A stretch of 43,035 bases of DNA from a virus. Taxonomy: Duplodnaviria; Heunggongvirae; Uroviricota; Caudoviricetes. The notes under the pieces were generated by a model. That model was not told the DNA's origin. It made no database searches and saw nothing but the letters and a program-made list of their open reading frames with translations. Within the stretch, counting starts at the first letter, position 1. Every line of letters starts with the position of its first letter. This document shows positions 4,104 through 37,837 of the stretch, piece after piece. The position numbers and the translations under genes are program-made. Where the stretch lies: the IMG/VR virus record IMGVR_UViG_2690316195_000004; one strand, written 5' to 3'.

Positions 4104-4108
4104 CCGTT

Positions 4109-5130: not shown

Positions 5131-5160
5131 GCAAAAGAAAACCCGGCACGGTGGCCGGGT
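5131..5160 (-). terminator. Rho-independent terminator of the cI/rex-slot operon
   Basis: GC hairpin CCCGGC-ACGGTG-GCCGGG immediately after the stop of the 149-aa gene, followed by a U-run on the minus-strand transcript. Confidence 0.6.
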
Positions 5161-10023: not shown

Positions 10024-10226
10024 CGGGCAAAGAGGCAAGTATTCATTATGAGAAACTTTCTAAATTTTTTGAGCCAGATTAGTGGTCTTGGATTCAGTTT
10101 ACGTCTCAGATACTGAGAAAAATAACAATTTGTGATACATGTTAACATTATGACTTTTCAGGCTTTCACCAAATTTTTTTAAGAGTATTCTGACCCTTTC
10201 GTATCAATGCATGAACAGGAATCTAT

Positions 10227-11246
10227 ATGTGTTATAGCAATGTTACAGATCGTGATCTTATGGGGCAAATTGCTACTAAATTAAATGACTATCGAAACCC
10301 TCCTCAAGGTGGCATGAGCATTGATCATGTTAATCGATGGATTAATCAATTTGAGTTAACCGATAGGCGATTTGTCTTAGAGGAAACGGACCGATTAATG
10401 GGGATTGGATACTTCTCTGAGAGCGACTATCGCAGAGTTATTAGTAGTATCGCCAATGATGAGCAAAATGAAAGGTTCTTTCAAACCGCAGCGTTTCTCG
10501 ATATCCAGAACCAAGGCACCAGTCAATCTGAGTTTTTGGATTTGCTTCGCGAAGATTGTGTAGAAGAATTCAACGTTGTGACCAGACTGTCACAACGTCA
10601 AAGAGTTAGTTCATTCCGTGAATTTATTTACCTTGACGATGTTTCATTCTCAGGAGCTAAGGCAATCAATGATTTAACTTGGTTTATTGAGCACTTTGAA
10701 CTCCAAAATATTACAATATTGGTGTACTTTTTAGGCGGGCACACGTATTCAGCATGGAATATAAAAAAACAACTTGAACGAAAATTTGCTGATAGGAATA
10801 TTTCAGTTTGCGTTGATGGTGGTGAGTTTGCAGTTGTTGAAAATCAACGCCGAAACAGTTCGAGTTCTGAGGTTTTTTGGCCAAAAGCGCAAAGTGTATC
10901 AATACCTGAATGGGCTGACGGTCAAGTACATTATTTAGGAACATATCGTGACGGTTACGTCGCGAATAATTTTTTCCCTAATGAGCAGAGACGAGATCGT
11001 TTTGAAGCAATTATGACAAAAGTTGGGTTTGATATCCTTGGTCAGAGTCAAAATCCTTCTGATGCTATAAAGCCTTTAGGCTTTTCAACTTTCAATGGTG
11101 TTGGGTTTGGTGGAACTATCTTTACTTTCAGAAACTGCCCCAATAATACCCCTCTAGCGTACTGGTGGGGAACTTATCTTCGAACGGGAAATAGAGCTCT
11201 GGATTGTTGGTATCCACTTATGAAGCGTAATGTGTATAATCGGTGA
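10227..11246 (+). CDS. Unknown protein with phosphoribosyltransferase-like motif (candidate effector/toxin)
   Basis: 339-aa ORF in the ren/nin moron slot; FIYLDDVSFSGAK resembles the PRPP-binding motif of type I PRTases; stop overlaps the start of the NADAR gene; AT-rich. Confidence 0.55.
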   Translation: MCYSNVTDRDLMGQIATKLNDYRNPPQGGMSIDHVNRWINQFELTDRRFVLEETDRLMGIGYFSESDYRRVISSIANDEQNERFFQTAAFLDIQNQGTSQSEFLDLLREDCVEEFNVVTRLSQRQRVSSFREFIYLDDVSFSGAKAINDLTWFIEHFELQNITILVYFLGGHTYSAWNIKKQLERKFADRNISVCVDGGEFAVVENQRRNSSSSEVFWPKAQSVSIPEWADGQVHYLGTYRDGYVANNFFPNEQRRDRFEAIMTKVGFDILGQSQNPSDAIKPLGFSTFNGVGFGGTIFTFRNCPNNTPLAYWWGTYLRTGNRALDCWYPLMKRNVYNR

Positions 11247-11860
11247 TCATGAGCTATAGACTATACCTGTTTCACAACACAGTTTCTTTCAGGAAAACCA
11301 CCGAGAAATGGGGTGGTCTTTCCAACATGGCCAAAGGATATCCGCTCTTAGTTAATGGTATACCCATTCAATCGAGTGAAATTCTTTACCAAGCATGCCG
11401 ATATCCAGACTATCCAGATATCCAAAAGGCTATTATTACCCAAGGCAACCCTTATGAAGCTAAACAAACCGCCAGATCTTTCGAAGCCAAAACCCGTGCA
11501 GGTTGGGAAAAAAATCGAGTTTCGGTAATGAAATGGTGTGTCTGCGTTAAGCTTTGCCAGAACTGGGAATCGTTTTTCGCGCTCCTGGATAGCACAGGAG
11601 AGCATGACATTGTTGAGCACTCAGAGAAGGACCAATTTTGGGGGGCTAGTAAAGACTCCGAAGGTAACTTTTATGGTATGAACGTGTTAGGTCGTATCCT
11701 TATGGATGCGAGAGATGTTGCAAGAAAGAAGGGGCTTTCAGGGTTTGCTACGATACCGCCGCTACCCTTGGATAGGTTTCTTCTGCTCGGGGAGCAAATA
11801 CGTGATGTTACTTTCTCTCCACTACCGATGAATTCGGGGCAAAGCTTATCGCTTTTTTAA
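11243..11860 (+). CDS. NADAR-domain protein (YbiA-like N-glycosidase / ADP-ribosyl hydrolase)
   Basis: WGGLSNM...SSEILYQACRY...FWGASKDSEGNFYGMNVLGRILMDAR aligns with NADAR hallmark motifs; start GTG 11243 or ATG 11249, coupled to the upstream gene. Confidence 0.8.
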   Translation: MIMSYRLYLFHNTVSFRKTTEKWGGLSNMAKGYPLLVNGIPIQSSEILYQACRYPDYPDIQKAIITQGNPYEAKQTARSFEAKTRAGWEKNRVSVMKWCVCVKLCQNWESFFALLDSTGEHDIVEHSEKDQFWGASKDSEGNFYGMNVLGRILMDARDVARKKGLSGFATIPPLPLDRFLLLGEQIRDVTFSPLPMNSGQSLSLF

Positions 11861-11897
11861 TGTGGCGTTGTTCCTTTCACTGTCGTGACAGATCTGC

Positions 11898-11921
11898 AAA
11901 CCCGCTTTGGCGGGTTTTTTA
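11898..11921 (+). terminator. Rho-independent terminator after the NADAR gene
   Basis: Hairpin AAACCCGC-TTTG-GCGGGTTT followed by T-run. Confidence 0.7.
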
Positions 11922-12113
11922 TAAATTATGCAACTTATTGACTTGCTACCGATATGTCAGACTTTAACATAGCAGCTAAAATCTAGTACGAAGCCGACAA
12001 GGTAAACATTGACTTGGTGGCATCTAGTAAAGCGTACAATGAGTGCCTGAAGTTTTATTTCGAGAAGTCGATAACTTTACCTAAAGGTAGCGATCGGTAG
12101 CGATCCGGTTTAT

Positions 12114-12338
12114 TTGAAAACAGGAGGGTTGAAAGTGACGATAGAATTTGAATCTACCCCAGAAGGGGCAAGGCAGGGAATGACACATCATCAGCGAAAA
12201 ATTAGAGAACTTTTGGAAGAAGAAACTGCTATATGCGAGGACGCTCTTGAAGGTGAATACAATCAAGGTCGTCTGGATGAAATACATAAAGAGATAGCCT
12301 ATCGAGAAAGCCAAATCGAAAAATTGAAGGTTATTTGA
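12114..12338 (+). CDS. Small hypothetical acidic protein
   Basis: 74-aa ORF; SD AGGAGGG before an alternative GTG start at about 12135. Confidence 0.4.
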   Translation: MKTGGLKVTIEFESTPEGARQGMTHHQRKIRELLEEETAICEDALEGEYNQGRLDEIHKEIAYRESQIEKLKVI

Positions 12339-12535
12339 AGACATGAAAGCAATTTGATTTCCAGCTATCAACCCGCCATAATCATGTCATCGGAGCCTGA
12401 ACAACTCCGGTGACTTCTGCGCTAAACGGGGACGTTTATGCGCACATACAATCCAAACTCTCTTCTCCCTTCACAGATGCAGAAATGCACCTGCGATTTT
12501 TTGCATCCAGCGCCTGACCTCTGCGGAGGTGAAGC

Positions 12536-14597: not shown

Positions 14598-15680
14598 TTA
14601 GAACTGGTAAACCATACCTACAGCAACGATATCATCGGTAGCAACGCCAGATGCTTTCGTGAAATCGCTCTTATCAATCAGGTTGATTTTGTAGTCAACA
14701 AAAGTGGACATATTTTTGTTGAAGTAATAGGTTGCACCTACATCAACATATTCAACCAGGTCCTGATCACCCCAAACACCCAAGTCTTTTCCTTTAGAAT
14801 GCAGGTAAGCAACGGATGGACGCAGGCCGAAGTCGAACTGATATTGTGCAACAGCTTCGAAGTTTTGTGCTTTGTTGGCAATATGGTTATTACCAAAAAC
14901 AGTCATGTTCTGGGTTTCAGAATAGGTGGTGGCCAGATAGATGTTGTTCGCATCATATTTCAGACCAGCTGCCCATACTTCAGCATTTTGACCAGAAGCA
15001 TTCAGACCGTTGTTACCGTAGATAACCTGATTATTAGTGCGATCAGATTTAGCATAGGTTGCACCCACGCCGAATCCTTCATACTCATAAGTAGTTGAGA
15101 AACCGAAACCATCGCCATTAGCTTCAGTTACTTCATTTCGGTCATTTTTGCCCTGATACTGAGCTGCAAAGTTCAGGCCATCAACCAGACCAAAGAAGTC
15201 GTTGTTACGATAAGTTGCAACACCTGTGGTGCGACCAGTCATGAATACATCTGTTTGGGTCCAGGTATCGCCACCGAATTCTGGCAGAACGTCAGTCCAC
15301 GCACCGATGTCGTATGCTACACCGTAGTTACGGCCGTAATCGATTGAGCCGTAGTCACCGAATTTCAGGCCTGCAAATGCAAGACGGGTTTTGTCTTTGG
15401 AGGAACCTTGAGATTCAGCGCGGTTGCCTTTGAATTCATATTCCCACTGACCGAAACCAGTCAGTTGATCGTTGATTTGGGTTTCACCTTTGAAGCCAAG
15501 ACGGGCATAAGTAGTATCACCATCATCTGCATCATTAGAGGAGAAGTAGTGCTTAGCATTAACTTTCCCGTACAGATCCAGCTTGTTACTGTCTTTATTA
15601 TAAATTTCAGCTGCCTGAGCAGACATCGCCATCAGTACTGATGCAGCTACAGCAGAAATTGCCACTGTTAATTTTTTCAT
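14598..15680 (-). CDS. nmpC: Outer-membrane porin (OmpC/OmpF/NmpC family), prophage-encoded
   Basis: 360-aa ORF with signal peptide ...AMSAQA, porin motifs and C-terminal ...VYQF; between Q and holin as in DLP12. Confidence 0.9.
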
Positions 15681-16107
15681 CGTGAGCCCTTTTTTTTGAA
15701 CTATTATTAAAAAATGATGTCACTGCGCGATAAATATTCATCTAATCAATGTGATTATTTCAAGATGTAAGTTTTAGTTTCTCATTTAATTTGTGAAGTA
15801 GATCTCTATTTTTATCTGAACTTTTTCTATCGAAACCTATTCATGGATCTTGGCTGAATAAAAATAAATCTATTAGCCAATTTATATTAACGGCTGTTAT
15901 TTATAAGTGCTCTGTAATTTGAAGGTTCAATTTAAATCGGCTAAAAATAACACTGGAAATTATTTGTTGGTTATTTGTTGAGATTTGCTTATGTATTTGT
16001 AGTGGTGTTTTCAATACTCGGTAGCATTCTCGCAAATATCATTTTGTGGTTTACGTACGTAAAAAATTGGTTATGCTGTTAAGAGTGGTTACTTCGTCAC
16101 ACAGCTT

Positions 16108-18319: not shown

Positions 18320-18519
18320 GAGGTTGCCCCGTATTCAGTGTCGCTGATTTGTATTGTCTGAAGTTGTTTTTACGTTAAGTTGATGCAGATCAATTAATAC
18401 GATACCTGCGTCATAATTGATTATTTGACGTGGTTTGATGGCGTAGATGCACGTTGTGACATGTAGATGATAATTATTATCATTTTTGCGGGTCCTTTCC
18501 GGCGATCCGACAGGTTACG

Positions 18520-18531
18520 GGGCGGCGACCT
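18520..18531. other. cosN cohesive-end site (GGGCGGCGACCT); cosB follows to about 18700
   Basis: Exact match to the lambda 12-nt cohesive end and to the downstream lambda left-end sequence preceding nu1. Confidence 0.85.
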
Positions 18532-18708
18532 CGCGGGTTTTCGCTATTTATGAAAATTTTCCGGTTTAAGGCGTTTCCGTTCTTCTTCGTCATAACTTAA
18601 TGTTTTTATTTAAAATACCCTCTGAAAAGAAAGGAAACGACAGGTGCTGAAAGCGAGCTTTTTGGCCTCTGTCGTTTCCTTTCTCTGTTTTTGTCCGTGG
18701 AATGAACA

Positions 18709-19224
18709 ATGGAAGTCAACAAAAAGCAGCTGGCTGACATTTTCGGTGCGAGTATCCGTACCATTCAGAACTGGCAGGAACAGGGAATGCCCGTTCTGCG
18801 AGGCGGTGGCAAGGGTAATGAGGTGCTTTATGACTCTGCCGCCGTCATAAAATGGTATGCCGAAAGGGATGCTGAAATTGAGAACGAAAAGCTGCGCCGG
18901 GAAGTTGAAGAACTGCGGCAGGCCAGCGAGACAGATCTCCAGCCAGGGACTATTGAGTACGAACGCCATCGACTTACGCGTGCGCAGGCCGACGCACAGG
19001 AGCTGAAAAATGCCAGAGACTCCGCTGAAGTGGTGGAAACCGCATTCTGTACTTTCGTGCTGTCGCGGATCGCAGGTGAAATTGCCAGTATTCTCGACGG
19101 GATCCCCCTGTTGGTGCAGCGGCGTTTTCCGGAACTGGAAAACCGACATGTTGATTTCCTGAAACGGGATATCATCAAAGCCATGAACAAAGCAGCCGCG
19201 CTGGATGAACTGATACCGGGATAA
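18709..19224 (+). CDS. nu1: Terminase small subunit Nu1, C-terminally truncated by about 10 aa
   Basis: MEVNKKQLADIFGASIRTIQNWQEQGMPVLRGGGKGNEV... matches lambda Nu1 but ends ...DELIPG at a deletion junction (lambda Nu1 is 181 aa). Confidence 0.85.
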   Translation: MEVNKKQLADIFGASIRTIQNWQEQGMPVLRGGGKGNEVLYDSAAVIKWYAERDAEIENEKLRREVEELRQASETDLQPGTIEYERHRLTRAQADAQELKNARDSAEVVETAFCTFVLSRIAGEIASILDGIPLLVQRRFPELENRHVDFLKRDIIKAMNKAAALDELIPG

Positions 19225-19234
19225 CACGCTCACT

Positions 19235-22503
<3,269 letters not shown>

Positions 22504-22523
<20 letters not shown>

Positions 22524-23823
22524 TCTCCCGCATATTGCCAGCATGGCTTTTAATGAGCCGCTGATGCTTGAACCCGCCTATGCGCGGGTTTTCTTTTGTG
22601 CGCTTGCAGGCCAGCTTGGGATCAGTCGCCTGACGGATGCAGTATCCGGCGACAGCCTGACTGCCGGAGAGGCACCCGCGGCGCTGGCGTTATCCGGTGA
22701 TGATGACGGACCACGACAGGCCCGCAGTTATCAGGTCATGAACGGCATCGCCGTGCTGCCGGTGTCCGGTACGCTGGTCAGCCGGACGCGGGCGCTGCAG
22801 CCGTATTCGGGAATGACCGGTTACAACGGCATTATCGCCCGTCTGCAACAGGCTGCCAGCGATCCGATGGTGGACGGCATTCTGCTCGATATGGACACAC
22901 CGGGCGGGATGGTGGCGGGAGCATTTGACTGTGCTGACATCATCGCCCGTGTGCGTGACATAAAGCCGGTATGGGCGCTGGCCAACGACATGAACTGCAG
23001 TGCAGGTCAGCTGCTTGCCAGCGCCGCCTCCCGGCGTCTGGTCACGCAGACCGCCCGGACAGGCTCCATCGGCGTCATGATGGCTCACAGTAATTACGGC
23101 GCTGCGCTGGAGAAACAGGGCGTGGAAATCACGCTGATTTACAGCGGCAGCCATAAGGTGGATGGCAACCCCTACAGCCATCTACCGGGTGATGTCCGGG
23201 AGACACTGCAGTCCCGGATGGATGCAACCCGCCGGATGTTTGCGCAGAAGGTGTCGGCATATACCGGCCTGTCCGTGCAGGCTGTGCTGGATACCGAGGC
23301 TGCAGTGTACAGCGGTCAGGAGGCCATTGATGCCGGACTGGCTGATGAACTTGTCAACAGCACCGATGCGATCACCGTTATGCGTGATGCACTGGATGCA
23401 CGTAAATCCCGTCTCTCAGGAGGGCGAATGACCAAAGAGACTCAATCAACAACTGTTTCAGCCACTGCTTCGCAGGCTGACGTTACTGACGTGGTGCAAG
23501 CGACGGAGGGCGAAAACGCCAGCGCGGCGCAGCCGGACGTGAACGCGCAGATCACCGCTGCGGTTGCGGCAGAAAACAGCCGCATTATGGGGATCCTCAA
23601 CTGTGAGGAAGCTCACGGACGCGAAGAACAGGCACGTGTGCTGGCCGAAACCCCCGGTATGACCGTGGAAACGGCCCGCCGCATTCTGGCAGCTGCACCA
23701 CAGAGTGCACAGGCGCGCAGTGACACTGCGCTGGATCGTCTGATGCAGGGGGCACCGGCACCACTGGCTGCAGGTAACCCGGCATCTGATGCCGTTAACG
23801 ATTTGCTGAACACACCAGTGTAA
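22504..23823 (+). CDS. C: Head maturation protease / scaffold C (S49 ClpP-like)
   Basis: GTG start (VTAELRNLPHIASMAF...), 439 aa as in lambda gpC; overlaps B end. Confidence 0.9.
23218..23823 (+). CDS. nu3: Scaffolding protein Nu3 (in-frame internal start within C)
   Basis: In-frame ATG (MDATRRMFAQ...) at the position corresponding to lambda nu3. Confidence 0.6.
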   Translation: MDATRRMFAQKVSAYTGLSVQAVLDTEAAVYSGQEAIDAGLADELVNSTDAITVMRDALDARKSRLSGGRMTKETQSTTVSATASQADVTDVVQATEGENASAAQPDVNAQITAAVAAENSRIMGILNCEEAHGREEQARVLAETPGMTVETARRILAAAPQSAQARSDTALDRLMQGAPAPLAAGNPASDAVNDLLNTPV

Positions 23824-23832
23824 GGGATGTTT

Positions 23833-24165
23833 ATGACGAGCAAAGAAACCTTTACCCATTACCAGCCGCTGGGCAACAGTGACCCGGCACATACGGCAAC
23901 CGCGCCCGGCGGATTGAGTGCGAAAGCGCCTGCAATGACCCCGCTGATGCTGGACACCTCCACCCGTAAGCTGGTTGCGTGGGATGGCACCACCGACGGT
24001 ACTGCCGTTGGCATTCTGGCGGTTGATGCTGACCAGACCAGCACCACGCTGACGTTCTACAAGTCCGGCACGTTCCGTTATGAGGATGTGCTCTGGCCGG
24101 AGGCTGCCAGCGACGAGACGAAAAAACGGACCGCGTTTGCCGGAACGGCAATCAGCATCGTTTAA
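23833..24165 (+). CDS. D: Head decoration protein D
   Basis: 110-aa [30 protein letters not shown]... matching lambda gpD. Confidence 0.95.
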
Positions 24166-24183
24166 CCTTACCCTTCATCACTA

Positions 24184-24207
24184 AAGGCCGCCTGTGCGGC
24201 TTTTTTT
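24184..24207 (+). terminator. Terminator-like hairpin between D and E
   Basis: GGCCGC-CTGT-GCGGC followed by seven T. Confidence 0.4.
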
Positions 24208-24220
24208 ACGGGATTTTTTT

Positions 24221-25246
24221 ATGTCGATGTACACAACCGCCCAGCTGCTGGCGGCAAATGAGCAGAAATTTAAGTTTGATCCGCTGTTTCTGCGTCTCTT
24301 TTTCCGTGAGAGCTATCCCTTCACCACGGAGAAAGTCTATCTCTCACAAATTCCGGGACTGGTAAACATGGCGCTGTACGTTTCGCCGATTGTTTCCGGT
24401 GAGGTTATCCGTTCCCGTGGCGGCTCCACCTCTGAATTTACGCCGGGATATGTCAAACCCAAGCATGAGGTGAATCCGCAGATGACCCTGCGTCGCCTGC
24501 CGGATGAAGATCCGCAGAATCTGGCGGACCCGGCTTACCGCCGCCGTCGCATCATCATGCAGAACATGCGAGACGAAGAGCTGGCCATTGCTCAGGTCGA
24601 AGAGATGCAGGCAGTTTCTGCTGTGCTTAAGGGCAAATACACCATGACCGGTGAAGCCTTCGATCCGGTTGAGGTGGATATGGGCCGCAGTGCGGCGAAC
24701 AACATCACACAGTCCGGTGGTACGGAGTGGAGCAAGCGTGACAAGTCCACGTATGACCCGACCGACGATATCGAAGCCTATGCGCTGAACGCCAGCGGCG
24801 TGGTGAATATCATCGTGTTTGATCCGAAAGGCTGGGCGCTGTTCCGTTCCTTCAAAGCCGTCAAGGAGAAGCTGGATACCCGTCGCGGCTCTCATTCCGA
24901 GCTGGAGACAGCGGTAAAAGACCTGGGCGAAGCGGTGTCCTATAAGGGGATGTATGGCGATACGGCGATCGTCGTGTATTCCGGACAGTACGTGGAAAAC
25001 GACGTCAAAAAGAACTTCCTGCCGGACAACACGATGGTGCTGGGGAACACTCAGGCACGCGGTCTGCGCACCTATGGCTGCATTCAGGATGCGGACGCAC
25101 AGCGCGAAGGTATTAACGCCTCTGCCCGCTACCCGAAAAACTGGGTGACCACCGGCGATCCGGCGCGTGAGTTCACCATGATTCAGTCAGCACCGCTGAT
25201 GCTGCTGGCTGATCCTGATGCGTTCGTGTCCGTACAACTGGCGTAA
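24221..25246 (+). CDS. E: Major capsid protein E
   Basis: 341-aa ORF MSMYTTAQLLAANEQKFKFDPLF... matching lambda gpE. Confidence 0.95.
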   Translation: MSMYTTAQLLAANEQKFKFDPLFLRLFFRESYPFTTEKVYLSQIPGLVNMALYVSPIVSGEVIRSRGGSTSEFTPGYVKPKHEVNPQMTLRRLPDEDPQNLADPAYRRRRIIMQNMRDEELAIAQVEEMQAVSAVLKGKYTMTGEAFDPVEVDMGRSAANNITQSGGTEWSKRDKSTYDPTDDIEAYALNASGVVNIIVFDPKGWALFRSFKAVKEKLDTRRGSHSELETAVKDLGEAVSYKGMYGDTAIVVYSGQYVENDVKKNFLPDNTMVLGNTQARGLRTYGCIQDADAQREGINASARYPKNWVTTGDPAREFTMIQSAPLMLLADPDAFVSVQLA

Positions 25247-25287
25247 TCATGGCCCTTCGGGGCCATTTTCTCTCTGTGGAGGAGTCC

Positions 25288-25683
25288 ATGACGAAAGATG
25301 AACTGATTGCCCGTCTTCAGGTGCTGGGTGAGCAACTGAACCGTGATGTCAGCCTGACGGGGACGAAAGAAGAACTGGTGCTCCGTGTGGCAGAGCTGGA
25401 AGAGGAGCTTGATGACACGGATGACGCTGCCGGTCAGGACACATCTGTCAGCCCGGAAAATGCGCTGACCGGACATGAAAATGAGGTGGTATCAGCGCAG
25501 CCGGATACCGTGATTGATACGGCTGCTCTGGTCACGGTCGTGGCACTGGTGACGCTGCATACTGATGCACTTCACGCCACGCGGGATGAGCCTGTGGCAT
25601 TTGTGCTGCCGGGAACGGCGTTTCGTGTCTCTGCCGATGTGGCAGCCGAAATGACAGAACATGGCCTGGCCAGAATGCAATAA
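25288..25683 (+). CDS. FI: DNA packaging protein FI
   Basis: MTKDELIARLQVLGEQL... with SD GGAGG; matches lambda gpFI. Confidence 0.85.
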   Translation: MTKDELIARLQVLGEQLNRDVSLTGTKEELVLRVAELEEELDDTDDAAGQDTSVSPENALTGHENEVVSAQPDTVIDTAALVTVVALVTLHTDALHATRDEPVAFVLPGTAFRVSADVAAEMTEHGLARMQ

Positions 25684-25694
25684 CGGGAGGCGCT

Positions 25695-26048
25695 GTGGCT
25701 GATTCCGATAACCTGTTCGATGCTGCCATTGCCCGCGCCGATGAAACGATACGCGGGTACATGGGAACGTCAGCCACCATGACATCCGGTGAGCTGTCCG
25801 GTGCTGTGATACGTGGTGTTTTTGATGACCCTGAAAATATCAGCTATGCCGGACAGGGGGTGCGCGTTGAAGGCTCCAGCCCGTCCCTGTTTGTCCGGAC
25901 TGATGATGTGCGGCAGCTGCGGCGTGGAGACACACTGACCATCGGCGAGGAAAACTTCTGGGTGGACCGGATTTCGCCGGATGATGGCGGAAGCTGTCAT
26001 CTCTGGCTTGGGCGTGGCGTGCCGCCTGCCGTTAACCGTCGCCGCTGA
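25695..26048 (+). CDS. FII: Head-tail connector FII
   Basis: 117-aa ORF (GTG start) matching lambda gpFII. Confidence 0.9.
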   Translation: MADSDNLFDAAIARADETIRGYMGTSATMTSGELSGAVIRGVFDDPENISYAGQGVRVEGSSPSLFVRTDDVRQLRRGDTLTIGEENFWVDRISPDDGGSCHLWLGRGVPPAVNRRR

Positions 26049-26059
26049 AAGGGGGATGT

Positions 26060-26638
26060 ATGGCCATAAAAGGTCTTGAGCAGGCCGTTGAAAACCTCAG
26101 CCGTATCAGCAAAACGGCGGTGCCTGGTGCCGCCGCAATGGCCATTAACCGCGTTGCGTCATCCGCGATATCGCAGTCTGCGTCACAGGTTGCCCGTGAG
26201 ACAAAGGTACGCCGGAAACTGGTAAAGGAAAGGGCCAGGCTGAAAAGGGCCACGGTCAAAAATCCGCAGGCCAGAATCAGGGTTAACCGGGGGGATTTGC
26301 CCGTAATCAAGCTGGGTAACGCGCGGGTTGTCCTTTCCCGCCGCAGACGTCGTAAAAAGGGGCAGCGTTCATCCCTGAAAGGTGGCGGCAGTGTGCTTGT
26401 GGTGGGAAACCGTCGTATTCCCGGCGCGTTTATTCAGCAACTGAAAAATGGCCGGTGGCATGTCATGCAGCGTGTGGCCGGGAAAAACCGTTACCCCATT
26501 GATGTGGTGAAAATCCCGATGGCGGTGCCGCTGACCACGGCGTTTAAACAGAATATTGAACGGATACGGCGTGAACGTCTTCCGAAAGAGCTGGGCTATG
26601 CGCTGCAGCATCAACTGAGAATGGTAATAAAGCGATGA
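26060..26638 (+). CDS. Z: Tail completion protein Z
   Basis: 192-aa ORF matching lambda gpZ. Confidence 0.9.
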   Translation: MAIKGLEQAVENLSRISKTAVPGAAAMAINRVASSAISQSASQVARETKVRRKLVKERARLKRATVKNPQARIRVNRGDLPVIKLGNARVVLSRRRRRKKGQRSSLKGGGSVLVVGNRRIPGAFIQQLKNGRWHVMQRVAGKNRYPIDVVKIPMAVPLTTAFKQNIERIRRERLPKELGYALQHQLRMVIKR

Positions 26639-27030
26639 AACATACTGAACTCCGTGCAGCCGTACTGGATGCACTGGAGAAGCATGACACCGGGGCGACG
26701 TTTTTTGATGGTCGCCCCGCTGTTTTTGATGAGGCGGATTTTCCGGCAGTTGCCGTTTATCTCACCGGCGCTGAATACACGGGCGAAGAGCTGGACAGCG
26801 ATACATGGCAGGCGGAGCTGCATATTGAAGTTTTCCTGCCTGCTCAGGTGCCGGATTCAGAGCTGGATGCGTGGATGGAGTCCCGGATTTATCCGGTGAT
26901 GAGTGATATCCCGGCACTGTCAGATTTGATCACCAGTATGGTGGCCAGCGGCTATGACTACCGGCGCGACGATGATGCGGGCCTGTGGAGTTCAGCCGAT
27001 CTGACTTATGTCATTACCTATGAAATGTGA
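26635..27030 (+). CDS. U: Tail terminator protein U
   Basis: 131-aa ORF matching lambda gpU. Confidence 0.9.
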
Positions 27031-27037
27031 GGACGCT

Positions 27038-27778
27038 ATGCCTGTACCAAATCCTGTAATGCCGGTGAAAGGTGCCGGGACCACCCTGTGGGTTTATAAG
27101 GGAAGCGGTGACCCTTATGCGAATCCGCTTTCAGACGTTGACTGGTCGCGTCTGGCAAAAGTTAAAGACCTGACGCCCGGCGAACTGACCGCTGAGTCCT
27201 ATGACGACAGCTATCTCGATGATGAAGATGCAGACTGGACTGCGACCGGGCAGGGGCAGAAATCTGCCGGAGATACCAGCTTCACGCTGGCGTGGATGCC
27301 CGGAGAGCAGGGGCAGCAGGCGCTGCTGGCGTGGTTTAATGAAGGGGATACCCGAGCCTATAAAATCCGCTTCCCGAACGGCACGGTCGATGTGTTCCGC
27401 GGCTGGGTCAGCAGTATCGGTAAGGCGGTGACGGCGAAGGAAGTGATCACCCGCACGGTGAAAGTCACCAACGTGGGCCGTCCGTCGATGGCAGAAGATC
27501 GCAGCACGGTGACGGCGACAACCGGCATGACTGTGACGCCTGCCAGCACCTCGGTGGTGAAAGGGCAGAGCACCACGCTGACCGTGGCATTCCAGCCGGA
27601 AGGCGCAACCGACAAGAGCTTCCGTGCGGTGTCTGCGGATAAAACAAAAGCCACCGTGTCGGTCAGTGGTATGACCATCACCGTGAAAGGTGTTGCTGCA
27701 GGCAAGGTCAACATTCCGGTCGTATCCGGTAATGGTGAACTTGCTGCGGTTGCAGAAATCACCGTCACCGCCAGTTAA
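27038..27778 (+). CDS. V: Major tail protein V (with C-terminal Ig-like domain)
   Basis: [36 protein letters not shown]... matching lambda gpV. Confidence 0.95.
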
Positions 27779-27793
27779 TCCGGGGAGTCAGCG

Positions 27794-28216
27794 ATGTTCC
27801 TGAAAACCGAATCATTTGAACATAACGGTGTGACCGTCACGCTTTCTGAACTGTCAGCCCTGCAGCGAATTGAGCATCTCGCCCTGATGAAACGGCAGGC
27901 AGAACAGGCGGAGTCAGACAGCAACCGGAAGTTTACTGTGGAAGACGCCATCAGAACCGGCGCGTTTCTGGTGGCGATGTCCCTGTGGCATAACCATCCG
28001 CAGAAGACGCAGATGCCGTCCATGAATGAAGCCGTTAAACAGATTGAGCAGGAAGTGCTTACCACCTGGCCCACGGAGGCAATTTCTCATGCTGAAAACG
28101 TGGTGTACCGGCTGTCTGGTATGTATGAGTTTGTTGTGAATAATGCCCCTGAACAGACAGAGGACGCCGGGCCCGCAGAGCCTGTTTCTGCGGGAAAGTG
28201 TTCGACGGTGAGCTGA
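27794..28216 (+). CDS. G: Tail assembly chaperone G
   Basis: 140-aa ORF matching lambda gpG; slippery GGGAAAG at 28192-28198 near its 3' end. Confidence 0.9.
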   Translation: MFLKTESFEHNGVTVTLSELSALQRIEHLALMKRQAEQAESDSNRKFTVEDAIRTGAFLVAMSLWHNHPQKTQMPSMNEAVKQIEQEVLTTWPTEAISHAENVVYRLSGMYEFVVNNAPEQTEDAGPAEPVSAGKCSTVS

Positions 28217-28632
28217 GTTTTGCCCTGAAACTGGCGCGAGAGATGGGGCGACCCGACTGGCGTGCCATGCTTGCCGGGATGTCATCCACGGAGTATGCCG
28301 ACTGGCACCGCTTTTACAGTACCCATTATTTTCATGATGTTCTGCTGGATATGCACTTTTCCGGGCTGACGTACACCGTGCTCAGCCTGTTTTTCAGCGA
28401 TCCGGATATGCATCCGCTGGATTTCAGTCTGCTGAACCGGCGTGAGGCTGACGAAGAGCCTGAAGATGATGTGCTGATGCAGAAAGCGGCAGGGCTTGCC
28501 GGAGGCGTCCGCTTTGGCCCGGACGGGAATGAAGTTATCCCCGCTTCCCCGGATGTGGCGGACATGACGGAGGATGACGTAATGCTGATGACAGTATCAG
28601 AAGGGATCGCAGGAGGAGTCCGGTATGGCTGA
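28198..28632 (+). CDS. T: Tail assembly chaperone T frame (expressed as G-T by -1 frameshift)
   Basis: ORF in the -1 frame overlapping the G end, matching lambda gpT. Confidence 0.85.
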   Translation: MFDGELSFALKLAREMGRPDWRAMLAGMSSTEYADWHRFYSTHYFHDVLLDMHFSGLTYTVLSLFFSDPDMHPLDFSLLNRREADEEPEDDVLMQKAAGLAGGVRFGPDGNEVIPASPDVADMTEDDVMLMTVSEGIAGGVRYG

Positions 28633-31204
28633 ACCGGTAGGCGATCTGGTCGTTGATTTAAGTCTGGATGCGGCCAGATTTGACGAGCAGATGGCCAGAG
28701 TCAGGCGTCATTTTTCCGGTACGGAAACTGATGCGAAAAAAACAGCGGCAGTCGTTGAACAGTCGCTGAGCCGACAGGCGCTGGCTGCACAGAAAGCGGG
28801 GATTTCCGTCGGGCAGTATAAAGCCGCCATGCGTATGCTGCCTGCACAGTTCACCGACGTGGCCACGCAGCTTGCAGGCGGGCAAAGCCCGTGGCTGATC
28901 CTGCTGCAACAGGGGGGTCAGGTTAAGGACTCCTTCGGCGGGATGATCCCCATGTTCAGGGGGCTTGCCGGTGCGATCACCCTGCCGATGGTGGGGGCCA
29001 CCTCGCTGGCGGTGGCGACCGGTGCGCTGGCGTATGCCTGGTATCAGGGCAACTCAACCCTGTCCGATTTCAACAAAACGCTGCTCCTTTCCGGCAATCA
29101 GGCGGGACTGACGGCAGATCGTATGCTGGTCCTGTCCAGAGCCGGGCAGGCGGCAGGGCTGACGTTTAACCAGACCAGCGAGTCACTGACGGCGCTGGTG
29201 AATGCCGGTGTGCGTGGTGGTGAGCAGTTTGAGGCGATCAGCCAGAGTGTGGCGCGTTTCTCCTCTGCATCCGGCGTGGAGGTGGACAAGGTCGCTGAAG
29301 CCTTCGGGAAGCTGACCACAGACCCGACGTCGGGACTGACAGCGATGGCACGTCAGTTCCATAACGTGACGGCGGAGCAGATTGCGTATGTTGCTCAGTT
29401 GCAGCGTTCCGGAGATGAAGCCGGGGCATTGCAGGCGGCGAACGAGGCCGCAACGAAAGGGTTTGATGACCAGACCCGCCGCCTGAAAGAGAACATGGGC
29501 ACGCTGGAGACCTGGGCAGACAGGACAGCACGGGCATTCAAATCCATGTGGGATTCGGTGCTGGATATTGGTCGCCCGGACACTGCCCAGGGAATGCTGG
29601 AGAAAGCAGAAAAGGCTTTTGATGAGGCGGACAAAAAATGGCAGTGGTATCAGAGCCGGAGCCACCGGCGCGGTAAAACCTCAGCATTTCTTGCCAATCT
29701 CCGGGGAGCATGGGAGGACAGAGCGAATGCGCAACTTGGGCTTTCAGCCGCCACGTTGCAGGCCGATCTTGAAAAGGCCAGAGAGATGGCAGCAAAGGAC
29801 TGGGCCGAGTCTGAGGCATCACGGCTGAAATATACCGAAGAGGCGCAGAAGGCTTACGAACGGCTGCAGACGCCGCTGGAGAAATATACCGCCCGTCAGG
29901 AAGAACTGAACAAGGCACTGAAAGACGGGAAAATCCTGCAGGCGGATTACAACACGCTGATGGCGGCGGCGAAAAAGGATTATGAAGCGACGCTGAAAAA
30001 GCCGAAACAGTCCGGCGTGAAGGTGTCTGCGGGCGATCGTCAGGAAGACAGTGCTCATGCTGCCCTGCTGACGCTTCAGGCTGAACTCCGGACGCTGGAG
30101 AAGCATGCCGGAGCAAATGAGAAAATCAGCCAGCAGCGCCGGGATTTGTGGAAGGCGGAGAGCCAGTTCGCGGTACTGGAGGAGGCGGCGCAACGTCGCC
30201 AGCTGTCTGCACAGGAGAAATCCCTGCTGGCGCATAAAGATGAGACGCTGGAGTACAAACGCCAGCTGGCTGCACTTGGCGACAAGGTTACGTATCAGGA
30301 GCGCCTGAACGCGCTGGCGCAGCAGGCGGATAAATTCGCACAGCAGCAACGGGCAAAACGGGCCGCCATTGATGCGAAAAGCCGGGGGCTGACTGACCGG
30401 CAGGCAGAACGGGAAGCCACGGAACAGCGCCTGAAGGAACAGTATGGCGATAATCCGCTGGCGCTGAATAACGTCATGTCAGAGCAGAAAAAGACCTGGG
30501 CGGCTGAAGACCAGCTTCGCGGGAGCTGGATGGCAGGCCTGAAGTCCGGCTGGAGTGAGTGGGAAGAGAGCGCCACGGACAGTATGTCGCAGGTAAAAAG
30601 TGCAGCCACGCAGACCTTTGATGGTATTGCACAGAATATGGCGGCGATGCTGACCGGCAGTGAGCAGAACTGGCGCAGCTTCACCCGTTCCGTGCTGTCC
30701 ATGATGACAGAAATTCTGCTTAAGCAGGCAATGGTGGGGATTGTCGGGAGTATCGGCAGCGCCATTGGCGGGGCTGTTGGTGGCGGCGCATCCGCGTCAG
30801 GCGGTACAGCCATTCAGGCCGCTGCGGCGAAATTCCATTTTGCAACCGGAGGATTTACGGGAACCGGCGGCAAATATGAGCCAGCGGGGATTGTTCACCG
30901 TGGTGAATTTGTCTTCACGAAGGAGGCAACCAGCCGGATTGGCGTGGGGAATCTTTACCGGCTGATGCGCGGCTATGCCACCGGCGGTTATGTCGGTACA
31001 CCGGGCAGCATGGCAGACAGCCGGTCGCAGGCGTCCGGGACGTTTGAGCAGAATAACCATGTGGTGATTAACAACGACGGCACGAACGGTCAGATAGGTC
31101 CGGCTGCTCTGAAGGCGGTGTATGACATGGCCCGCAAGGGTGCCCGTGATGAAATTCAGACACAGATGCGTGATGGTGGCCTGTTCTCCGGAGGTGGACG
31201 ATGA
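28625..31204 (+). CDS. H: Tail tape-measure protein H
   Basis: 859-aa ORF matching lambda gpH (coiled-coil-rich, Gly-rich C-terminus). Confidence 0.95.
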   Translation: MAEPVGDLVVDLSLDAARFDEQMARVRRHFSGTETDAKKTAAVVEQSLSRQALAAQKAGISVGQYKAAMRMLPAQFTDVATQLAGGQSPWLILLQQGGQVKDSFGGMIPMFRGLAGAITLPMVGATSLAVATGALAYAWYQGNSTLSDFNKTLLLSGNQAGLTADRMLVLSRAGQAAGLTFNQTSESLTALVNAGVRGGEQFEAISQSVARFSSASGVEVDKVAEAFGKLTTDPTSGLTAMARQFHNVTAEQIAYVAQLQRSGDEAGALQAANEAATKGFDDQTRRLKENMGTLETWADRTARAFKSMWDSVLDIGRPDTAQGMLEKAEKAFDEADKKWQWYQSRSHRRGKTSAFLANLRGAWEDRANAQLGLSAATLQADLEKAREMAAKDWAESEASRLKYTEEAQKAYERLQTPLEKYTARQEELNKALKDGKILQADYNTLMAAAKKDYEATLKKPKQSGVKVSAGDRQEDSAHAALLTLQAELRTLEKHAGANEKISQQRRDLWKAESQFAVLEEAAQRRQLSAQEKSLLAHKDETLEYKRQLAALGDKVTYQERLNALAQQADKFAQQQRAKRAAIDAKSRGLTDRQAEREATEQRLKEQYGDNPLALNNVMSEQKKTWAAEDQLRGSWMAGLKSGWSEWEESATDSMSQVKSAATQTFDGIAQNMAAMLTGSEQNWRSFTRSVLSMMTEILLKQAMVGIVGSIGSAIGGAVGGGASASGGTAIQAAAAKFHFATGGFTGTGGKYEPAGIVHRGEFVFTKEATSRIGVGNLYRLMRGYATGGYVGTPGSMADSRSQASGTFEQNNHVVINNDGTNGQIGPAALKAVYDMARKGARDEIQTQMRDGGLFSGGGR

Positions 31205-31530
31205 AGACCTTCCGCTGGAAAGTGAAACCCGGTATGGATGTGGCTTCGGTCCCTTCTGTAAGAAAGGTGCGCTTTGGTGATGGCTATTCTCAGCGAGCGC
31301 CTGCCGGGCTGAATGCCAACCTGAAAACGTACAGCGTGACGCTTTCTGTCCCCCGTGAGGAGGCCACGGTACTGGAGTCGTTTCTGGAAGAGCACGGGGG
31401 CTGGAAATCCTTTCTGTGGACGCCGCCTTATGAGTGGCGGCAGATAAAGGTGACCTGCGCAAAATGGTCGTCGCGGGTCAGTATGTTGCGTGTTGAGTTC
31501 AGCGCAGAGTTTGAACAGGTGGTGAACTGA
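31201..31530 (+). CDS. M: Tail tip protein M
   Basis: 109-aa ORF matching lambda gpM. Confidence 0.9.
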   Translation: MKTFRWKVKPGMDVASVPSVRKVRFGDGYSQRAPAGLNANLKTYSVTLSVPREEATVLESFLEEHGGWKSFLWTPPYEWRQIKVTCAKWSSRVSMLRVEFSAEFEQVVN

Positions 31531-32228
31531 TGCAGGATATCCGGCAGGAAACACTGAATGAATGCACCCGTGCGGAGCAGTCGGCCAGCGTGGTGCTCTG
31601 GGAAATCGACCTGACAGAGGTCGGTGGAGAACGTTATTTTTTCTGTAATGAGCAGAACGAAAAAGGTGAGCCGGTCACTTGGCAGGGGCGACAGTATCAG
31701 CCGTATCCCATTCAGGGGAGCGGTTTTGAACTGAATGGCAAAGGCACCAGTACGCGCCCCACGCTGACGGTTTCTAACCTGTACGGTATGGTCACCGGGA
31801 TGGCGGAAGATATGCAGAGTCTGGTCGGCGGAACGGTGGTCCGGCGTAAGGTTTACGCCCGTTTTCTGGATGCGGTGAACTTCGTCAACGGAAACAGTGA
31901 CGCCGATCCGGAGCAGGAGGTGATCAGCCGCTGGCGCATCGAGCAGTGCAGCGAACTGAGCGCGGTCAGTGCCTCTTTTGTACTGTCCACGCCGACGGAA
32001 ACGGACGGTGCCGTTTTTCCGGGACGTATCATGCTGGCCAACACCTGCACCTGGACCTATCGCGGTGATGAGTGCGGTTATCACGGTCCGGCGGTCGCGG
32101 ATGAATATGATCAGCCGACGTCCGATATCACGAAGGATAAATGCAGCAAATGCCTGAGCGGCTGTAAGTTTCGCAATAACGTCGGCAACTTTGGCGGCTT
32201 CCTTTCCATTAACAAACTTTCGCAGTGA
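31530..32228 (+). CDS. L: Tail tip protein L
   Basis: 232-aa ORF matching lambda gpL. Confidence 0.9.
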   Translation: MQDIRQETLNECTRAEQSASVVLWEIDLTEVGGERYFFCNEQNEKGEPVTWQGRQYQPYPIQGSGFELNGKGTSTRPTLTVSNLYGMVTGMAEDMQSLVGGTVVRRKVYARFLDAVNFVNGNSDADPEQEVISRWRIEQCSELSAVSASFVLSTPTETDGAVFPGRIMLANTCTWTYRGDECGYHGPAVADEYDQPTSDITKDKCSKCLSGCKFRNNVGNFGGFLSINKLSQ

Positions 32229-32977
32229 ATCCCATGACAGAGACAGAATCAGCGATTCTGGCGCACGCCCGGCGATGTGCGCCAGCGGAGTCGTGCGGCT
32301 TCGTGGTGAGAACACCGGAGGGGGAAAGATATTTTCCCTGCGTGAATATCTCCGGTGAGCCGGAGGCGTATTTCCGGATGTCGCCGGAGGACTGGCTGCG
32401 GGCAGAGATGCAGGGTGAGATTGTGGCGCTGGTCCACAGCCACCCCGGTGGTCTGCCCTGGCTGAGTGAGACCGACCGGCGGCTGCAGGTGCAGAGTGAT
32501 TTGCCGTGGTGGCTGGTTTGCCGGGGGGCGATTCACAAGTTCCGCTGTGTGCCACATCTTTCCGGGCGGCGCTTTGAGCACGGGGTGACGGACTGTTACA
32601 CGCTGTTCCGGGATGCTTACCATCTGGCGGGGATTGAGATGCCGGATTTTCATCGCGAGGATGACTGGTGGCGTCACGGTCAGAATCTCTATCTGGATAA
32701 TCTGGAGGCCACAGGGCTGTATCAGGTGCCGTTGTCATCAGCACAACCGGGCGATGTGCTGCTGTGCTGTTTTGGTTCATCGGTGCCGAATCATGCCGCC
32801 ATTTACTGTGGTGACAGCGAGCTGCTGCACCATATTCCTGAACAACTGAGCAAACGAGAGAGGTACACCGACAAATGGCAGCGACGCACACACTCCCTCT
32901 GGCGTCACCGGGAATGGCACGCATCTGCCTTTACGGGGATTTGCAACGATTTGGCCGCCGCATCGACCTTCGTGTGA
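32225..32977 (+). CDS. K: Tail assembly protein K (JAB/MPN + NlpC/P60 domains)
   Basis: HSHPGG JAMM motif and NlpC/P60 Cys; 103-nt overlap with I as in lambda; N-terminal extent uncertain. Confidence 0.85.
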   Translation: MNPMTETESAILAHARRCAPAESCGFVVRTPEGERYFPCVNISGEPEAYFRMSPEDWLRAEMQGEIVALVHSHPGGLPWLSETDRRLQVQSDLPWWLVCRGAIHKFRCVPHLSGRRFEHGVTDCYTLFRDAYHLAGIEMPDFHREDDWWRHGQNLYLDNLEATGLYQVPLSSAQPGDVLLCCFGSSVPNHAAIYCGDSELLHHIPEQLSKRERYTDKWQRRTHSLWRHREWHASAFTGICNDLAAASTFV

Positions 32978-33546
32978 AAACGGGGGCTGAAGCCATCCGC
33001 GCACTGGCCACACAGCTCCCGGCGTTTCGTCAGAAACTGAGCGACGGCTGGTATCAGGTACGGATTGCCGGGCGTGACGTCAGCACGTCCGGGTTAACGG
33101 CGCAGTTACATGAGACTCTGCCTGACGGCGCTGTGATTCATATTGTTCCCAGAGTCGCCGGGGCCAAGTCAGGGGGCGTATTCCAGATTGTTCTGGGGGC
33201 TGCCGCCATTGCCGGATCATTCTTTACTGCCGGAGCCACCCTTGCAGCATGGGGGGCAGCCATTGGGGCCGGTGGTATGACCGGCATCCTGTTTTCTCTC
33301 GGTGCCAGTATGGTGCTCGGTGGTGTGGCGCAGATGCTGGCACCGAAAGCCAGAACTCCCCGTACACAGACAACGGATAACGGTAAGCAGAACACCTATT
33401 TCTCCTCACTGGATAACATGGTTGCCCAGGGCAATGTTCTGCCTGTTCTGTACGGGGAAATGCGCGTGGGGTCTCGCGTGGTTTCTCAGGAGATCAGCAC
33501 GGCAGACGAAGGGGATGGTGGTCAGGTTGTGGTGATTGGTCGCTGA
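32875..33546 (+). CDS. I: Tail assembly protein I
   Basis: 223-aa ORF matching lambda gpI (Gly/Ala-rich hydrophobic centre). Confidence 0.9.
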   Translation: MAATHTLPLASPGMARICLYGDLQRFGRRIDLRVKTGAEAIRALATQLPAFRQKLSDGWYQVRIAGRDVSTSGLTAQLHETLPDGAVIHIVPRVAGAKSGGVFQIVLGAAAIAGSFFTAGATLAAWGAAIGAGGMTGILFSLGASMVLGGVAQMLAPKARTPRTQTTDNGKQNTYFSSLDNMVAQGNVLPVLYGEMRVGSRVVSQEISTADEGDGGQVVVIGR

Positions 33547-33605
33547 TGAAAAACGTTTATGTGAAACCGCCTCCGGGCGGTTTTGTCGTTTATGGAGCGT
33601 GAGGA

Positions 33606-36600
33606 ATGGGTAAAGGCAGCAGTAAGGGGCATACTCCGCGCGAAGCGAAGGACAACCTGAAGTCCACGCAGTTGCTGAGTGTGATCGATGCCATCAGCGA
33701 AGGGCCGATTGAAGGTCCGGTGGATGGATTAAAAAGCGTGCTGCTGAACAGTACGCCAGTGCTGGACAGTGAGGGGAATACCAACATCTCCGGCGTCACG
33801 GTGGTGTTCCGGGCCGGTGAGCAGGAGCAGACACCGCCGGAGGGATTTGAATCCTCCGGCTCCGAGACGGTGCTGGGTACGGAAGTGAAATACGACACGC
33901 CGATCACCTGGACCATCACGTCGGCAAACATTGACCGACTGCGTGTTACCTTCGGCGTGCAGGCACTGGTGGAAACCACCTCAAAGGGGGACAGGAATCC
34001 GTCGGAAGTCCGCCTGCTGGTTCAGATACAGCGTAATGGTGGCTGGGTGACGGAAAAAGACATCACCATTAAGGGCAAAACCACCTCGCAGTATCTGGCC
34101 TCGGTGGTGGTGGGTAACCTGCCGCCGCGCCCGTTCAGTATACGGATGCGCAGGATGACGCCGGACAGCACCACAGACCAGCTGCAGAACAAAACGCTCT
34201 GGTCGTCATACACCGAAATCATCGATGTGAAACAGTGCTACCCGAACACGGCACTGGTCGGTGTGCAGGTGGACTCGGAGCAGTTCGGCAGCCAGCAGGT
34301 GAGCCGTAATTATCATCTGCGCGGGCGTATTCTGCAGGTGCCGTCGAACTATAACCCGCAGACGCGGCAATACAGCGGTATCTGGGACGGAACGTTTAAA
34401 CCGGCATACAGCAACAACATGGCCTGGTGTCTGTGGGATATGCTGACCCATCCGCGCTACGGCATGGGGAAACGTCTTGGTGCGGCGGATGTGGATAAAT
34501 GGGCGCTGTATGTCATCGGCCAGAATTGCGACCAGTCGGTGCCGGACGGCTTTGGCGGCACGGAGCCGCGCATCACCTGTAATGCCTGGCTGACCACACA
34601 GCGCAAGGCGTGGGATGTGCTCAGTGATTTCTGCTCGGCGATGCGCTGTATGCCGATATGGAACGGGCAGACGCTGACGTTCGTGCAGGACCGACCATCA
34701 GATAAGGTGTGGACCTATAACCGCAGTAATGTGGTGATGCCGGATGATGGCGCGCCGTTCCGCTACAGCTTCAGCGCCCTGAAGGACCGCCATAATGCCG
34801 TTGAGGTGAACTGGATTGACCCGGATAACGGCTGGGAGACGGCGACAGAGCTTGTGGAGGACACGCAGGCCATTGCCCGTTACGGTCGTAACGTCACGAA
34901 GATGGATGCCTTTGGCTGTACCAGTCGGGGGCAGGCGCACCGCGCCGGGCTGTGGCTGATTAAAACGGAACTGCTGGAAACGCAGACCGTGGACTTCAGC
35001 GTGGGTGCGGAAGGGCTTCGCCATGTACCGGGGGATGTCATTGAAATCTGCGATGATGACTATGCGGGTATCAGCACCGGCGGGCGCGTGCTGGCGGTGA
35101 ACAGCCAGACCCGGACGCTGACGCTCGACCGTGAAATCACGCTGCCATCCTCCGGTACCACGCTGATAAGCCTGGTTGACGGAAGTGGCAATCCGGTCAG
35201 CGTGGAGGTCCAGTCCGTCACCGACGGCGTGAAGGTAAAAGTGAGCCGTGTTCCTGACGGCGTTGCCGGATACAGCGTGTGGGGGCTGAAGCTGCCGACG
35301 CTGCGCCAGCGACTGTTCCGCTGCGTGAGTATCCGTGAGAACGACGACGGCACGTATGCCATCACCGCCGTGCAGCATGTGCCGGAAAAAGAGGCCATCG
35401 TGGATAACGGGGCGCACTTTGACGGCGACCAGAGCGGCACGGTGAATGGTGTCACGCCGCCAGCGGTGCAGCACCTGACTGCCGAAGTCACCGCAGACAG
35501 CGGGGAATATCAGGTGCTGGCGCGCTGGGACACACCGAAGGTGGTGAAGGGCGTGAGCTTCCTGCTCCGTCTGACCGTAACAGCGGACGACGGCAGTGAG
35601 CGGCTGGTCAGCACGGCCCGGACGACGGAAACCACATACCGCTTCACACAACTGGCGTTGGGGAACTACAGGCTGACAGTCCGGGCGGTAAATGCGTGGG
35701 GACAGCAGGGCGATCCGGCATCGGTATCGTTCCGGATTGCCGCACCGGCAGCGCCGTCTCGGATTGAGCTGACACCGGGCTATTTTCAGATAACCGCCAC
35801 GCCGCATCTTGCGGTTTATGACCCGACGGTACAGTTTGAGTTCTGGTTCTCGGAAAAACGGATTGCGGATATCAGGCAGGTTGAAACCAGCGCGCGTTAT
35901 CTTGGTACGGCACTGTACTGGATAGCCGCCAGTATCAATATCAAACCGGGCCATGATTATTATTTTTACGTTCGCAGTGTGAACACCGTTGGCAAATCGG
36001 CATTCGTGGAGGCTGTCGGTCAGCCGAGTGATGATGCATCAGGCTATCTGGATTTTTTCAAAGGCGAGATAGGGAAAACCCATCTGGCTCAGGAGCTGTG
36101 GACGCAGATTGATAACGGTCAGCTTGCGCCTGACCTGACTGAAATCAGGACGTCCATAACGGATGTCAGCAATGAAATAACACAGACCGTCAATAAGAAA
36201 CTGGAAGACCAGAGTGCAGCGATCCAGCAGATACAGAAGGTTCAGGTTGATACAAATAATAACCTGAACAGCATGTGGGCAGTGAAGCTGCAGCAGATGC
36301 AGGACGGACGCCTTTATATTGCGGGTATCGGTGCCGGTATTGAGAACACCCCTGACGGCATGCAGAGTCAGGTGCTGCTGGCAGCAGACAGGATTGCGAT
36401 GATTAATCCTGCGAATGGCAACACAAAGCCGATGTTTGTTGGTCAGGGCGATCAGATATTCATGAATGAAGTGTTCCTGAAACGCCTGACGGCCCCCACC
36501 ATTACCAGCGGCGGTAATCCTCCGGCATTTTCCCTGACATCAGACGGGAGACTGACGGCGAAAAATGCGGATATCAGTGGCAGTGTGAATGCGAACTCAG

Positions 36601-37827: not shown

Positions 37828-37837
37828 TGGGGTGAAT

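Follow-up and report, generated by a model that had tools for sequence, protein, structure and literature searches.

A 432-bp deletion between ACCGGG repeats truncates nu1 and A in a lambdoid prophage probably of the DLP12 family and very probably abolishes autonomous DNA packaging

Both subunits of the phage lambda terminase, the small one (TerS, Nu1) and the large one (TerL, gpA), are essential for virion production (PMC6379665, PMC9611059). The proposed TerL-binding domain of TerS was placed by Feiss and co-workers in the C-terminal ~40 residues, and TerS lacking the last 30 residues bound TerL poorly (PMC9026076). In lambda TerL, the N-terminal domain contains the TerS-binding domain, whereas the C-terminus is the portal-binding end (PMC9026076). 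The motifs of gpA, including the Walker A sequence KSA-R79-VGYS, are used here as assigned by Ortiz et al.; in that work every change of E179 was lethal, and it is the ATPase that powers translocation (PMC6379665). The structure of gpA was stated as not known (PMC9410871), and no matching structure entry was returned when the PDB was searched by sequence with gpA. The lambda terminase works in trans on A-defective DNA (PMC4856287). Among the relatives of lambda, PhiR68.2 has served in published efficiency-of-plaquing assays as a temperate phage that forms plaques (PMC13190303), and the corresponding record, PhiR68_2, is therefore a valid viable comparator for prophages of its kind.

The DNA analysed here, referred to as the window, is the whole 43,035-nt stretch of the IMG/VR record IMGVR_UViG_2690316195_000004 (Caudoviricetes). 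Its closest relative in the phage collection was Escherichia phage PhiR68_2 (PV340576.1), a lambdoid phage of the DLP12 family. The two were ~98.6–99% identical in nucleotide sequence over most of the window and had the same int-to-pin order. In contrast to the window, PhiR68_2 has an intact nu1 and an intact A; the window also differs from it by another nin-region cassette (10049–12366), an extra Macro-domain ORF and a stop in a TraR-like gene. Integrases identical in sequence to that of the window adjoin the fimZ/sfm operon, i.e. the argU/DLP12 attachment locus, in complete genomes. Taken together, the comparisons described below point with good confidence to a defective lambdoid prophage, probably of the DLP12 family, with a single lesion, a 432-bp deletion between ACCGGG repeats, which should leave it incapable of packaging its own DNA and rescuable in trans.

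The preliminary description of this locus had proposed a deletion of roughly 0.4 kb at an ACCGGG repeat. Exact extension of the alignment from both sides against the intact E. coli prophage L003 (NZ_CP083585; reference coordinates nohA 2810–3355, A 3330–5255) determined the loss as exactly 432 bp. In L003 the lost interval is flanked by ACCGGG at 3316–3321 and 3748–3753; the window retains a single copy, at 19215–19220, which is the junction itself. No bases were inserted at the junction and the flanking matches to L003 were exact. The alignment with lambda nu1-A resulted in the same picture: with positions counted from the Nu1 start at bp 191 (PMC9026076), the two repeats correspond to lambda-equivalent bp 697–702 and 1129–1134, and lambda-equivalent bp 703–1134 is absent from the window. 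Megablast searches were conducted with window 18400–21000 against 50,697 phage records and with 18900–19600 against 5,426 complete E. coli genomes. Matches were obtained in 104 phage records and in 4,085 of the E. coli genomes; all the top ones were in two pieces, with a span in the record that was 431–432 bp longer than in the query.

The chance occurrence of such a repeat was estimated with 200,000 random deletions of 100–1500 bp simulated within nu1-A. A microhomology of at least 6 bp was present in 0.23% of them (P = 0.0023), and among the 2,013 possible deletions of exactly 432 bp in nu1-A only 7 had it. Because one ACCGGG was retained and a 6-bp microhomology is rare among random deletions, the junction is, as far as can be judged from its sequence, the signature of a short-direct-repeat (slipped-strand) deletion and not of random breakage. 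A spontaneous deletion between the repeats would have taken the end of nu1 and the beginning of A in one event, and we infer replication slippage or another short-homology, RecA-independent pathway as the likely mechanism. The event is judged to be recent because the remnant of A shows no differences from PhiR68_2 in 1508 nt.

The truncated nu1 gene occupies positions 18709–19224 (+), as determined from the ORF list, the Pfam match and the comparison of its tail with lambda and L003, and contains 171 of the original 181 codons. The encoded protein ends with AAALDELIPG and has lost the C-terminal LLSEYIEQSG (10 residues) of lambda and L003 Nu1; the earlier reading of a 171-aa Nu1 stopping at DELIPG was thus borne out, the 181-aa length having been checked on both references. 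The left ACCGGG repeat ends inside nu1 codon 171. The new stop, TAA at 19222–19224 (+), arises where the nu1 frame runs through GATAAC of gene A, and its position agrees with the length of the gene, since (19222−18709)/3 equals 171 codons. Apart from the lost end the gene is well preserved. Nu1 1–171 has 3 amino-acid differences from lambda, and 1 nucleotide of 512 differs from PhiR68_2 nu1. The Pfam Phage_Nu1 family (PF07471) covers the protein over 1–164 of 164 profile positions (E = 1.1e-100), and the N-terminal winged-HTH DNA-binding and oligomerisation region is wholly kept. The C-terminal TerL-binding region (~40 residues) is incomplete, Nu1 being 10 residues short, and the missing residues would fall within this region. 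The published TerS truncations remove 30 residues or more, compared with 10 in the window.

A fusion of the 3' end of nu1 to the middle of A had been described for this locus. At the DNA level the two genes are indeed joined at the junction, whereas the fusion does not extend to the protein, because A is read in the +1 frame with respect to nu1 even though 432 is a multiple of three. A Nu1-gpA fusion protein was rejected as a product, as the nu1 frame reaches TAA just past the junction. The rescue of such a fusion by +1 frameshifting was also considered and rejected, the GGA-TAA context offering no tRNA re-pairing.

The remnant of A is an ORF of 495 aa at 19235–20722 (+) starting with MKRFSNGRGFW, which was identified from the ORF list, Pfam and conserved motifs; the intact gpA is 641 aa in lambda and in L003. 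The first 141 codons of the gene (gpA residues 1–141) are deleted. The A-derived sequence begins at 19215, inside codon 140, and translation could start at Met147 at the earliest. Upstream of the junction the A frame is closed by a TGA read at 19211–19213 (+), which is contributed by the nu1 sequence and lies eight codons before the ATG at 19235, with no ATG, GTG or TTG between them. The length of the A ORF and the in-frame TGA before its first Met were therefore as first described. The remnant is identical to PhiR68_2 gpA through to the stop codon, C-terminus included, and the corresponding nucleotides are identical in 1508 of 1508 positions. Compared with lambda, gpA 147–641 has 3 amino-acid differences.

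The deleted part of gpA contains several functional elements. The Walker A motif KSARVGYS, residues 76–83 in lambda and L003 gpA, is gone from the 495-aa remnant, and so is the YQEGRW segment (residues 46–51 in both proteins; the Tyr46 region). The TerS-binding N-terminal domain, which is said to have been delimited to about 48 residues by Frackman et al. in 1985, is absent with residues 1–141. The comparison with lambda and L003 and the published domain placement (PMC9026076) thus uphold the earlier statement that the missing N-terminus carries both the Walker A motif and the Nu1-interaction region. In contrast, Walker B with the catalytic Glu179 is kept, VAGYDE (gpA 174–179) being residues 28–33 of the remnant (window 19316–19333), and the GST motif (gpA 212–214) is kept as well. 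The Pfam GpA_ATPase domain (PF05876) is matched by the remnant over profile positions 106–237 of 247, compared with 3–237 in intact gpA, whereas the GpA_nuclease domain (PF20454) is complete (profile 2–286 of 294, E = 9.7e-75).

The ATG of the remnant, at 19235, lies 10 nt past the nu1 stop. A GGGA sequence 13 nt upstream of this ATG forms a duplex of −4.1 kcal/mol with the anti-Shine-Dalgarno sequence, which is weak and at an unfavourable distance. Any gpA 147–641 that is produced would most likely come from re-initiation past the nu1 stop; this fragment would be the sole possible A product, probably at a low level. It would have no TerS-binding N-terminus, and ~43% of the ATPase-domain profile, including the Walker A P-loop, would be gone from it. 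The junction was also scanned for a newly made promoter or terminator and none was found; the promoter-like sequences, which show no enrichment, sit in cos before nu1.

The cos region directly upstream of nu1 (18490–18708, +) is intact according to the alignment with lambda. The cosN cohesive-end sequence GGGCGGCGACCT is located at 18520–18531, and in the pairwise alignment the window is the same as lambda from ~18503 to the ATG of nu1, cosB included. The GGGTCCT heptamer upstream of cosN, which we take to be cosQ-like, is also kept. The elements of the region (cosQ-cosN-cosB) are named here after PMC9026076.

The integrity of the other genes was determined by tblastn of all PhiR68_2 proteins against the window. 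The head and tail genes W, B, C/Nu3, D, E, FI, FII, Z, U, V, G, T, H, M, L, K, I and J (20719–37100, +) gave full-length matches with no stops or frameshifts, in agreement with the structural genes having been called otherwise intact at the outset. Integrase, exo/bet/gam, cI, cro, cII, O, P and Q were full length and uninterrupted in the same search, as were S, R, Rz, lom, stf, tfa and pin. The resulting order in the window is int ... cI ... O P ... Q ... S R Rz ... cos nu1 A W B ... J lom stf tfa pin. In place of seven nin-region genes of PhiR68_2, the window has a different cassette. The only other interrupted gene is an accessory one, TraR/zf-DksA-like (1692–1907, −), which has an in-frame stop compared with PhiR68_2.

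With both terminase subunits truncated, at least one virion-essential function of the prophage is lost, and it is very probably unable to package its own DNA autonomously, to judge from the motifs lost. The Nu1(2):gpA(1) protomer would not form, the N-terminus of gpA being gone and the C-terminus of Nu1 clipped, and the remnant of gpA without a P-loop would not hydrolyse ATP to translocate DNA. Excision, replication, cell lysis and the assembly of proheads and tails are expected to proceed after induction, whereas cutting of cos and packaging of the prophage DNA are not.

Rescue in trans would be possible because cos is intact and the lambda terminase acts in trans on A-defective genomes. A terminase of lambda specificity, supplied by another prophage or by a superinfecting phage, could package the DNA of the prophage; homologous recombination with a related phage could restore the 432 bp. 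The nu1-A segment was found in 4,085 of the 5,426 complete E. coli genomes, at a total of 6,121 places and with as many as 6 of these in one genome, which makes a co-resident lambda-type terminase plausible.

In another reading the truncated genes are more than dead remains. The prophage could be a cos-positive, terminase-minus element that relies on a helper, or Nu1(1–171) and gpA(147–641) could act as dominant-negative proteins against superinfecting lambdoid phages, namely those of the same packaging or Q specificity. If the former were true, the prophage would be mobilised only by co-resident or superinfecting phages of lambda specificity. If the latter were true, the clipped TerS and TerL from a trans-activated late operon would poison the terminase of related invaders, resulting in a natural dominant-negative packaging-interference defence akin to the Rpp strategy of PICIs. 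In favour of this reading, cos is intact, Nu1 keeps its whole DNA-binding and oligomerisation region (Pfam 1–164 of 164), the nuclease domain and portal-binding C-terminus of gpA are present in the fragment, and neither of the remnant ORFs has decayed. The PICI Rpp is likewise TerS-like, with a C-terminus 30–40 residues shorter, and forms heterodimers with the TerS of the helper (PMC9026076). However, the missing decay is equally explained by a recent deletion, Nu1 is short by 10 residues and not by 30–40, and a lysogen does not express the late genes. The allele was found in two datasets only, with no sign of spread or selection, and the full set of structural genes is unlike that of satellites. 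Both versions of this proposal are considered quite unlikely. The classification of the element as a PICI or another satellite was separately rejected, as it has a full head and tail gene set and a cosB that is the same as in lambda, and does not show the defining features of this group. The identity of the window Nu1 as an Rpp was rejected too, the protein being a truncated bona fide TerS and not a divergent Rpp.

The preferred reading, a recent deletion in an otherwise complete E. coli prophage, presumes that the junction is real. An assembly or sequencing artefact would mean that the actual genome has an intact nu1 and A, and the rarity of the junction is in line with this. A 48-base junction probe, each half of which is shorter than the 28-base word of megablast, did not find the junction in the 5,426 complete E. 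coli genomes or in the phage records. In plasmids only a 29-nt partial match was detected, which shows that the probe was sensitive enough. The exact 38-mer of the junction was not found in IMG/VR, GTDB species representatives or JGI metagenomes. The terminase genes of lambdoid phages are also often multi-copy in E. coli and thereby able to confuse assemblers. Against this, the exact 171-aa Nu1 was found on two public contigs, LIUX01000021.1 (GCA_001419825.1, an NCBI assembly) and contig 152 in the Logan assembly of SRR14011890, a separate SRA run. Both contigs carry the junction with identical flanks and are 100% identical to the window over 6.5–7.5 kb, although GCA_001419825.1 and SRR14011890 may be one strain sequenced twice; no literature on the source accessions (LIUX..., SRR14011890) was found. 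An assembly artefact is unlikely because the junction recurs in two assemblies from different pipelines. Moreover, the retention of one copy of the 6-bp repeat is a classic signature of a biological deletion (P ~0.002 by chance), and a 6-bp repeat is far below the k-mer sizes of assemblers, for which a collapse there is not expected. An artefact of either kind is therefore regarded as highly improbable.

That the short genes still encode a working terminase of unusual organisation is scarcely credible: both ORFs are open with significant Pfam matches, and an ATG just past the nu1 stop makes translational coupling conceivable, but relatives 99–100% identical to the window all have a 641-aa gpA and a 181-aa Nu1, Walker A and the first 102 positions of the ATPase profile are counted as lost, translocation depends on the ATPase centre (PMC6379665), the N-terminus that binds TerS is gone (PMC9026076), and the other public 495-aa gpA calls are independent frameshift or nonsense lesions or contig ends and represent no natural short form.

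The other broken A genes were inspected individually. In the E. coli assemblies GCA_045575735.1, SRR11454326, ERR10711856 and SRR23524054, the lesions are independent of one another and lie in the 5' third of A: 1-nt deletions affect codons 139 (A5 to A4), 122 and 117, and there is one nonsense mutation near codon 135. With any of these, a gene caller returns the same 495-aa product from Met147. Sequencing errors may account for some of the lesions, as the portal and W genes of GCA_045575735.1 are split too. A short natural form of gpA with its start at Met147 was rejected on the grounds that the other exact 495-aa calls come from 1-nt deletions, nonsense mutations and contig ends. Several short public contigs start 0–2 nt upstream of the A Met147 codon. 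These starts are most simply explained as a selection effect of the look-up by an exact 495-aa sequence; a recurrent break of the assembly graph or a mosaic boundary may also be present at this place.

Several accessory genes were observed outside the terminase region. The nin region contains a two-gene cassette (10227–11860, +), in which the gene of a PRTase-CE protein overlaps that of a NADAR-domain protein. The 339-aa PRTase-CE protein matched Pfam PF24390 (E = 6e-39) and PADLOC PRTase_III-A (5e-10), and the 205-aa NADAR-domain protein matched PF08719 (E = 6e-23) and PADLOC PDC-M42C (4e-8). The cassette stands in place of ren/SMR/ybcK/ybcL/ybcM of PhiR68_2, and window 10049–12366 had no nucleotide match to PhiR68_2. 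From these domain matches, it looks like prophage-borne defence or counter-defence cargo. A 300-aa ORF at 40861–41763 (+), absent from PhiR68_2, is located between stf (37832–40864) and tfa (41766–42347). A Macro domain (PF01661, E = 6e-19, residues 44–169) lies in its N-terminal part and is followed by a His-rich GAHTHS-like segment which resembles the C-terminal repeats of stf. An ADP-ribose-binding or hydrolase domain is unusual at this position. The nmpC/OmpD-like porin gene (14601–15741, −) matched both overlapping CDS of PhiR68_2 in the same arrangement, which suggests that the split of this moron gene is a shared frameshift or an annotation split.

The value of these results lies mainly in the annotation and in the prediction of phage biology. 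Tools that score gene content would call this prophage 'intact', yet it is most probably non-infectious alone through one small deletion. In studies of the source strain, the allele would supply natural gpA(147–641) and Nu1(1–171) variants together with a simple system for trans-complementation and marker rescue.

In comparison with lambda, the retained parts of nu1 and A are 98–99% identical in nucleotide sequence, cos is identical, the gene order is the same, and the overlap of nu1 and A is the same in the intact relatives of the window; the difference is the loss of Nu1 172–181 and of gpA 1–141 with the TerS-binding N-terminus, the Tyr46 region and Walker A. The junction resembles the short-direct-repeat deletions of E. 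coli in that two identical repeats are present in the parental form, and one copy and the intervening DNA are precisely lost. Nothing unusual distinguishes it from them, slippage and other RecA-independent routes being alike in sequence. The closest precedent for the defect itself is DLP12 of E. coli K-12 (nohD-aaaD-tfaD), a member of what is probably the same prophage family, in which a deletion likewise disrupts A and the Nu1 homologue is kept. In DLP12, however, nohD is full length, the 5' 309 nt of A (pseudogene aaaD) are fused to tfaD, and the whole head-tail region is gone, whereas the window has lost 432 bp and keeps all its morphogenetic genes. By this comparison of gene content, the window prophage is at a far earlier stage of decay than DLP12. 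With a remnant that has acquired zero further mutations, a probable place in the DLP12 family and the lesion in the same gene, it shows a first step of domestication. The deletion is clean but ordinary early prophage decay, which does not change the views on terminases or on decay, and the element is a defective prophage of a well-known kind that will not surprise specialists.
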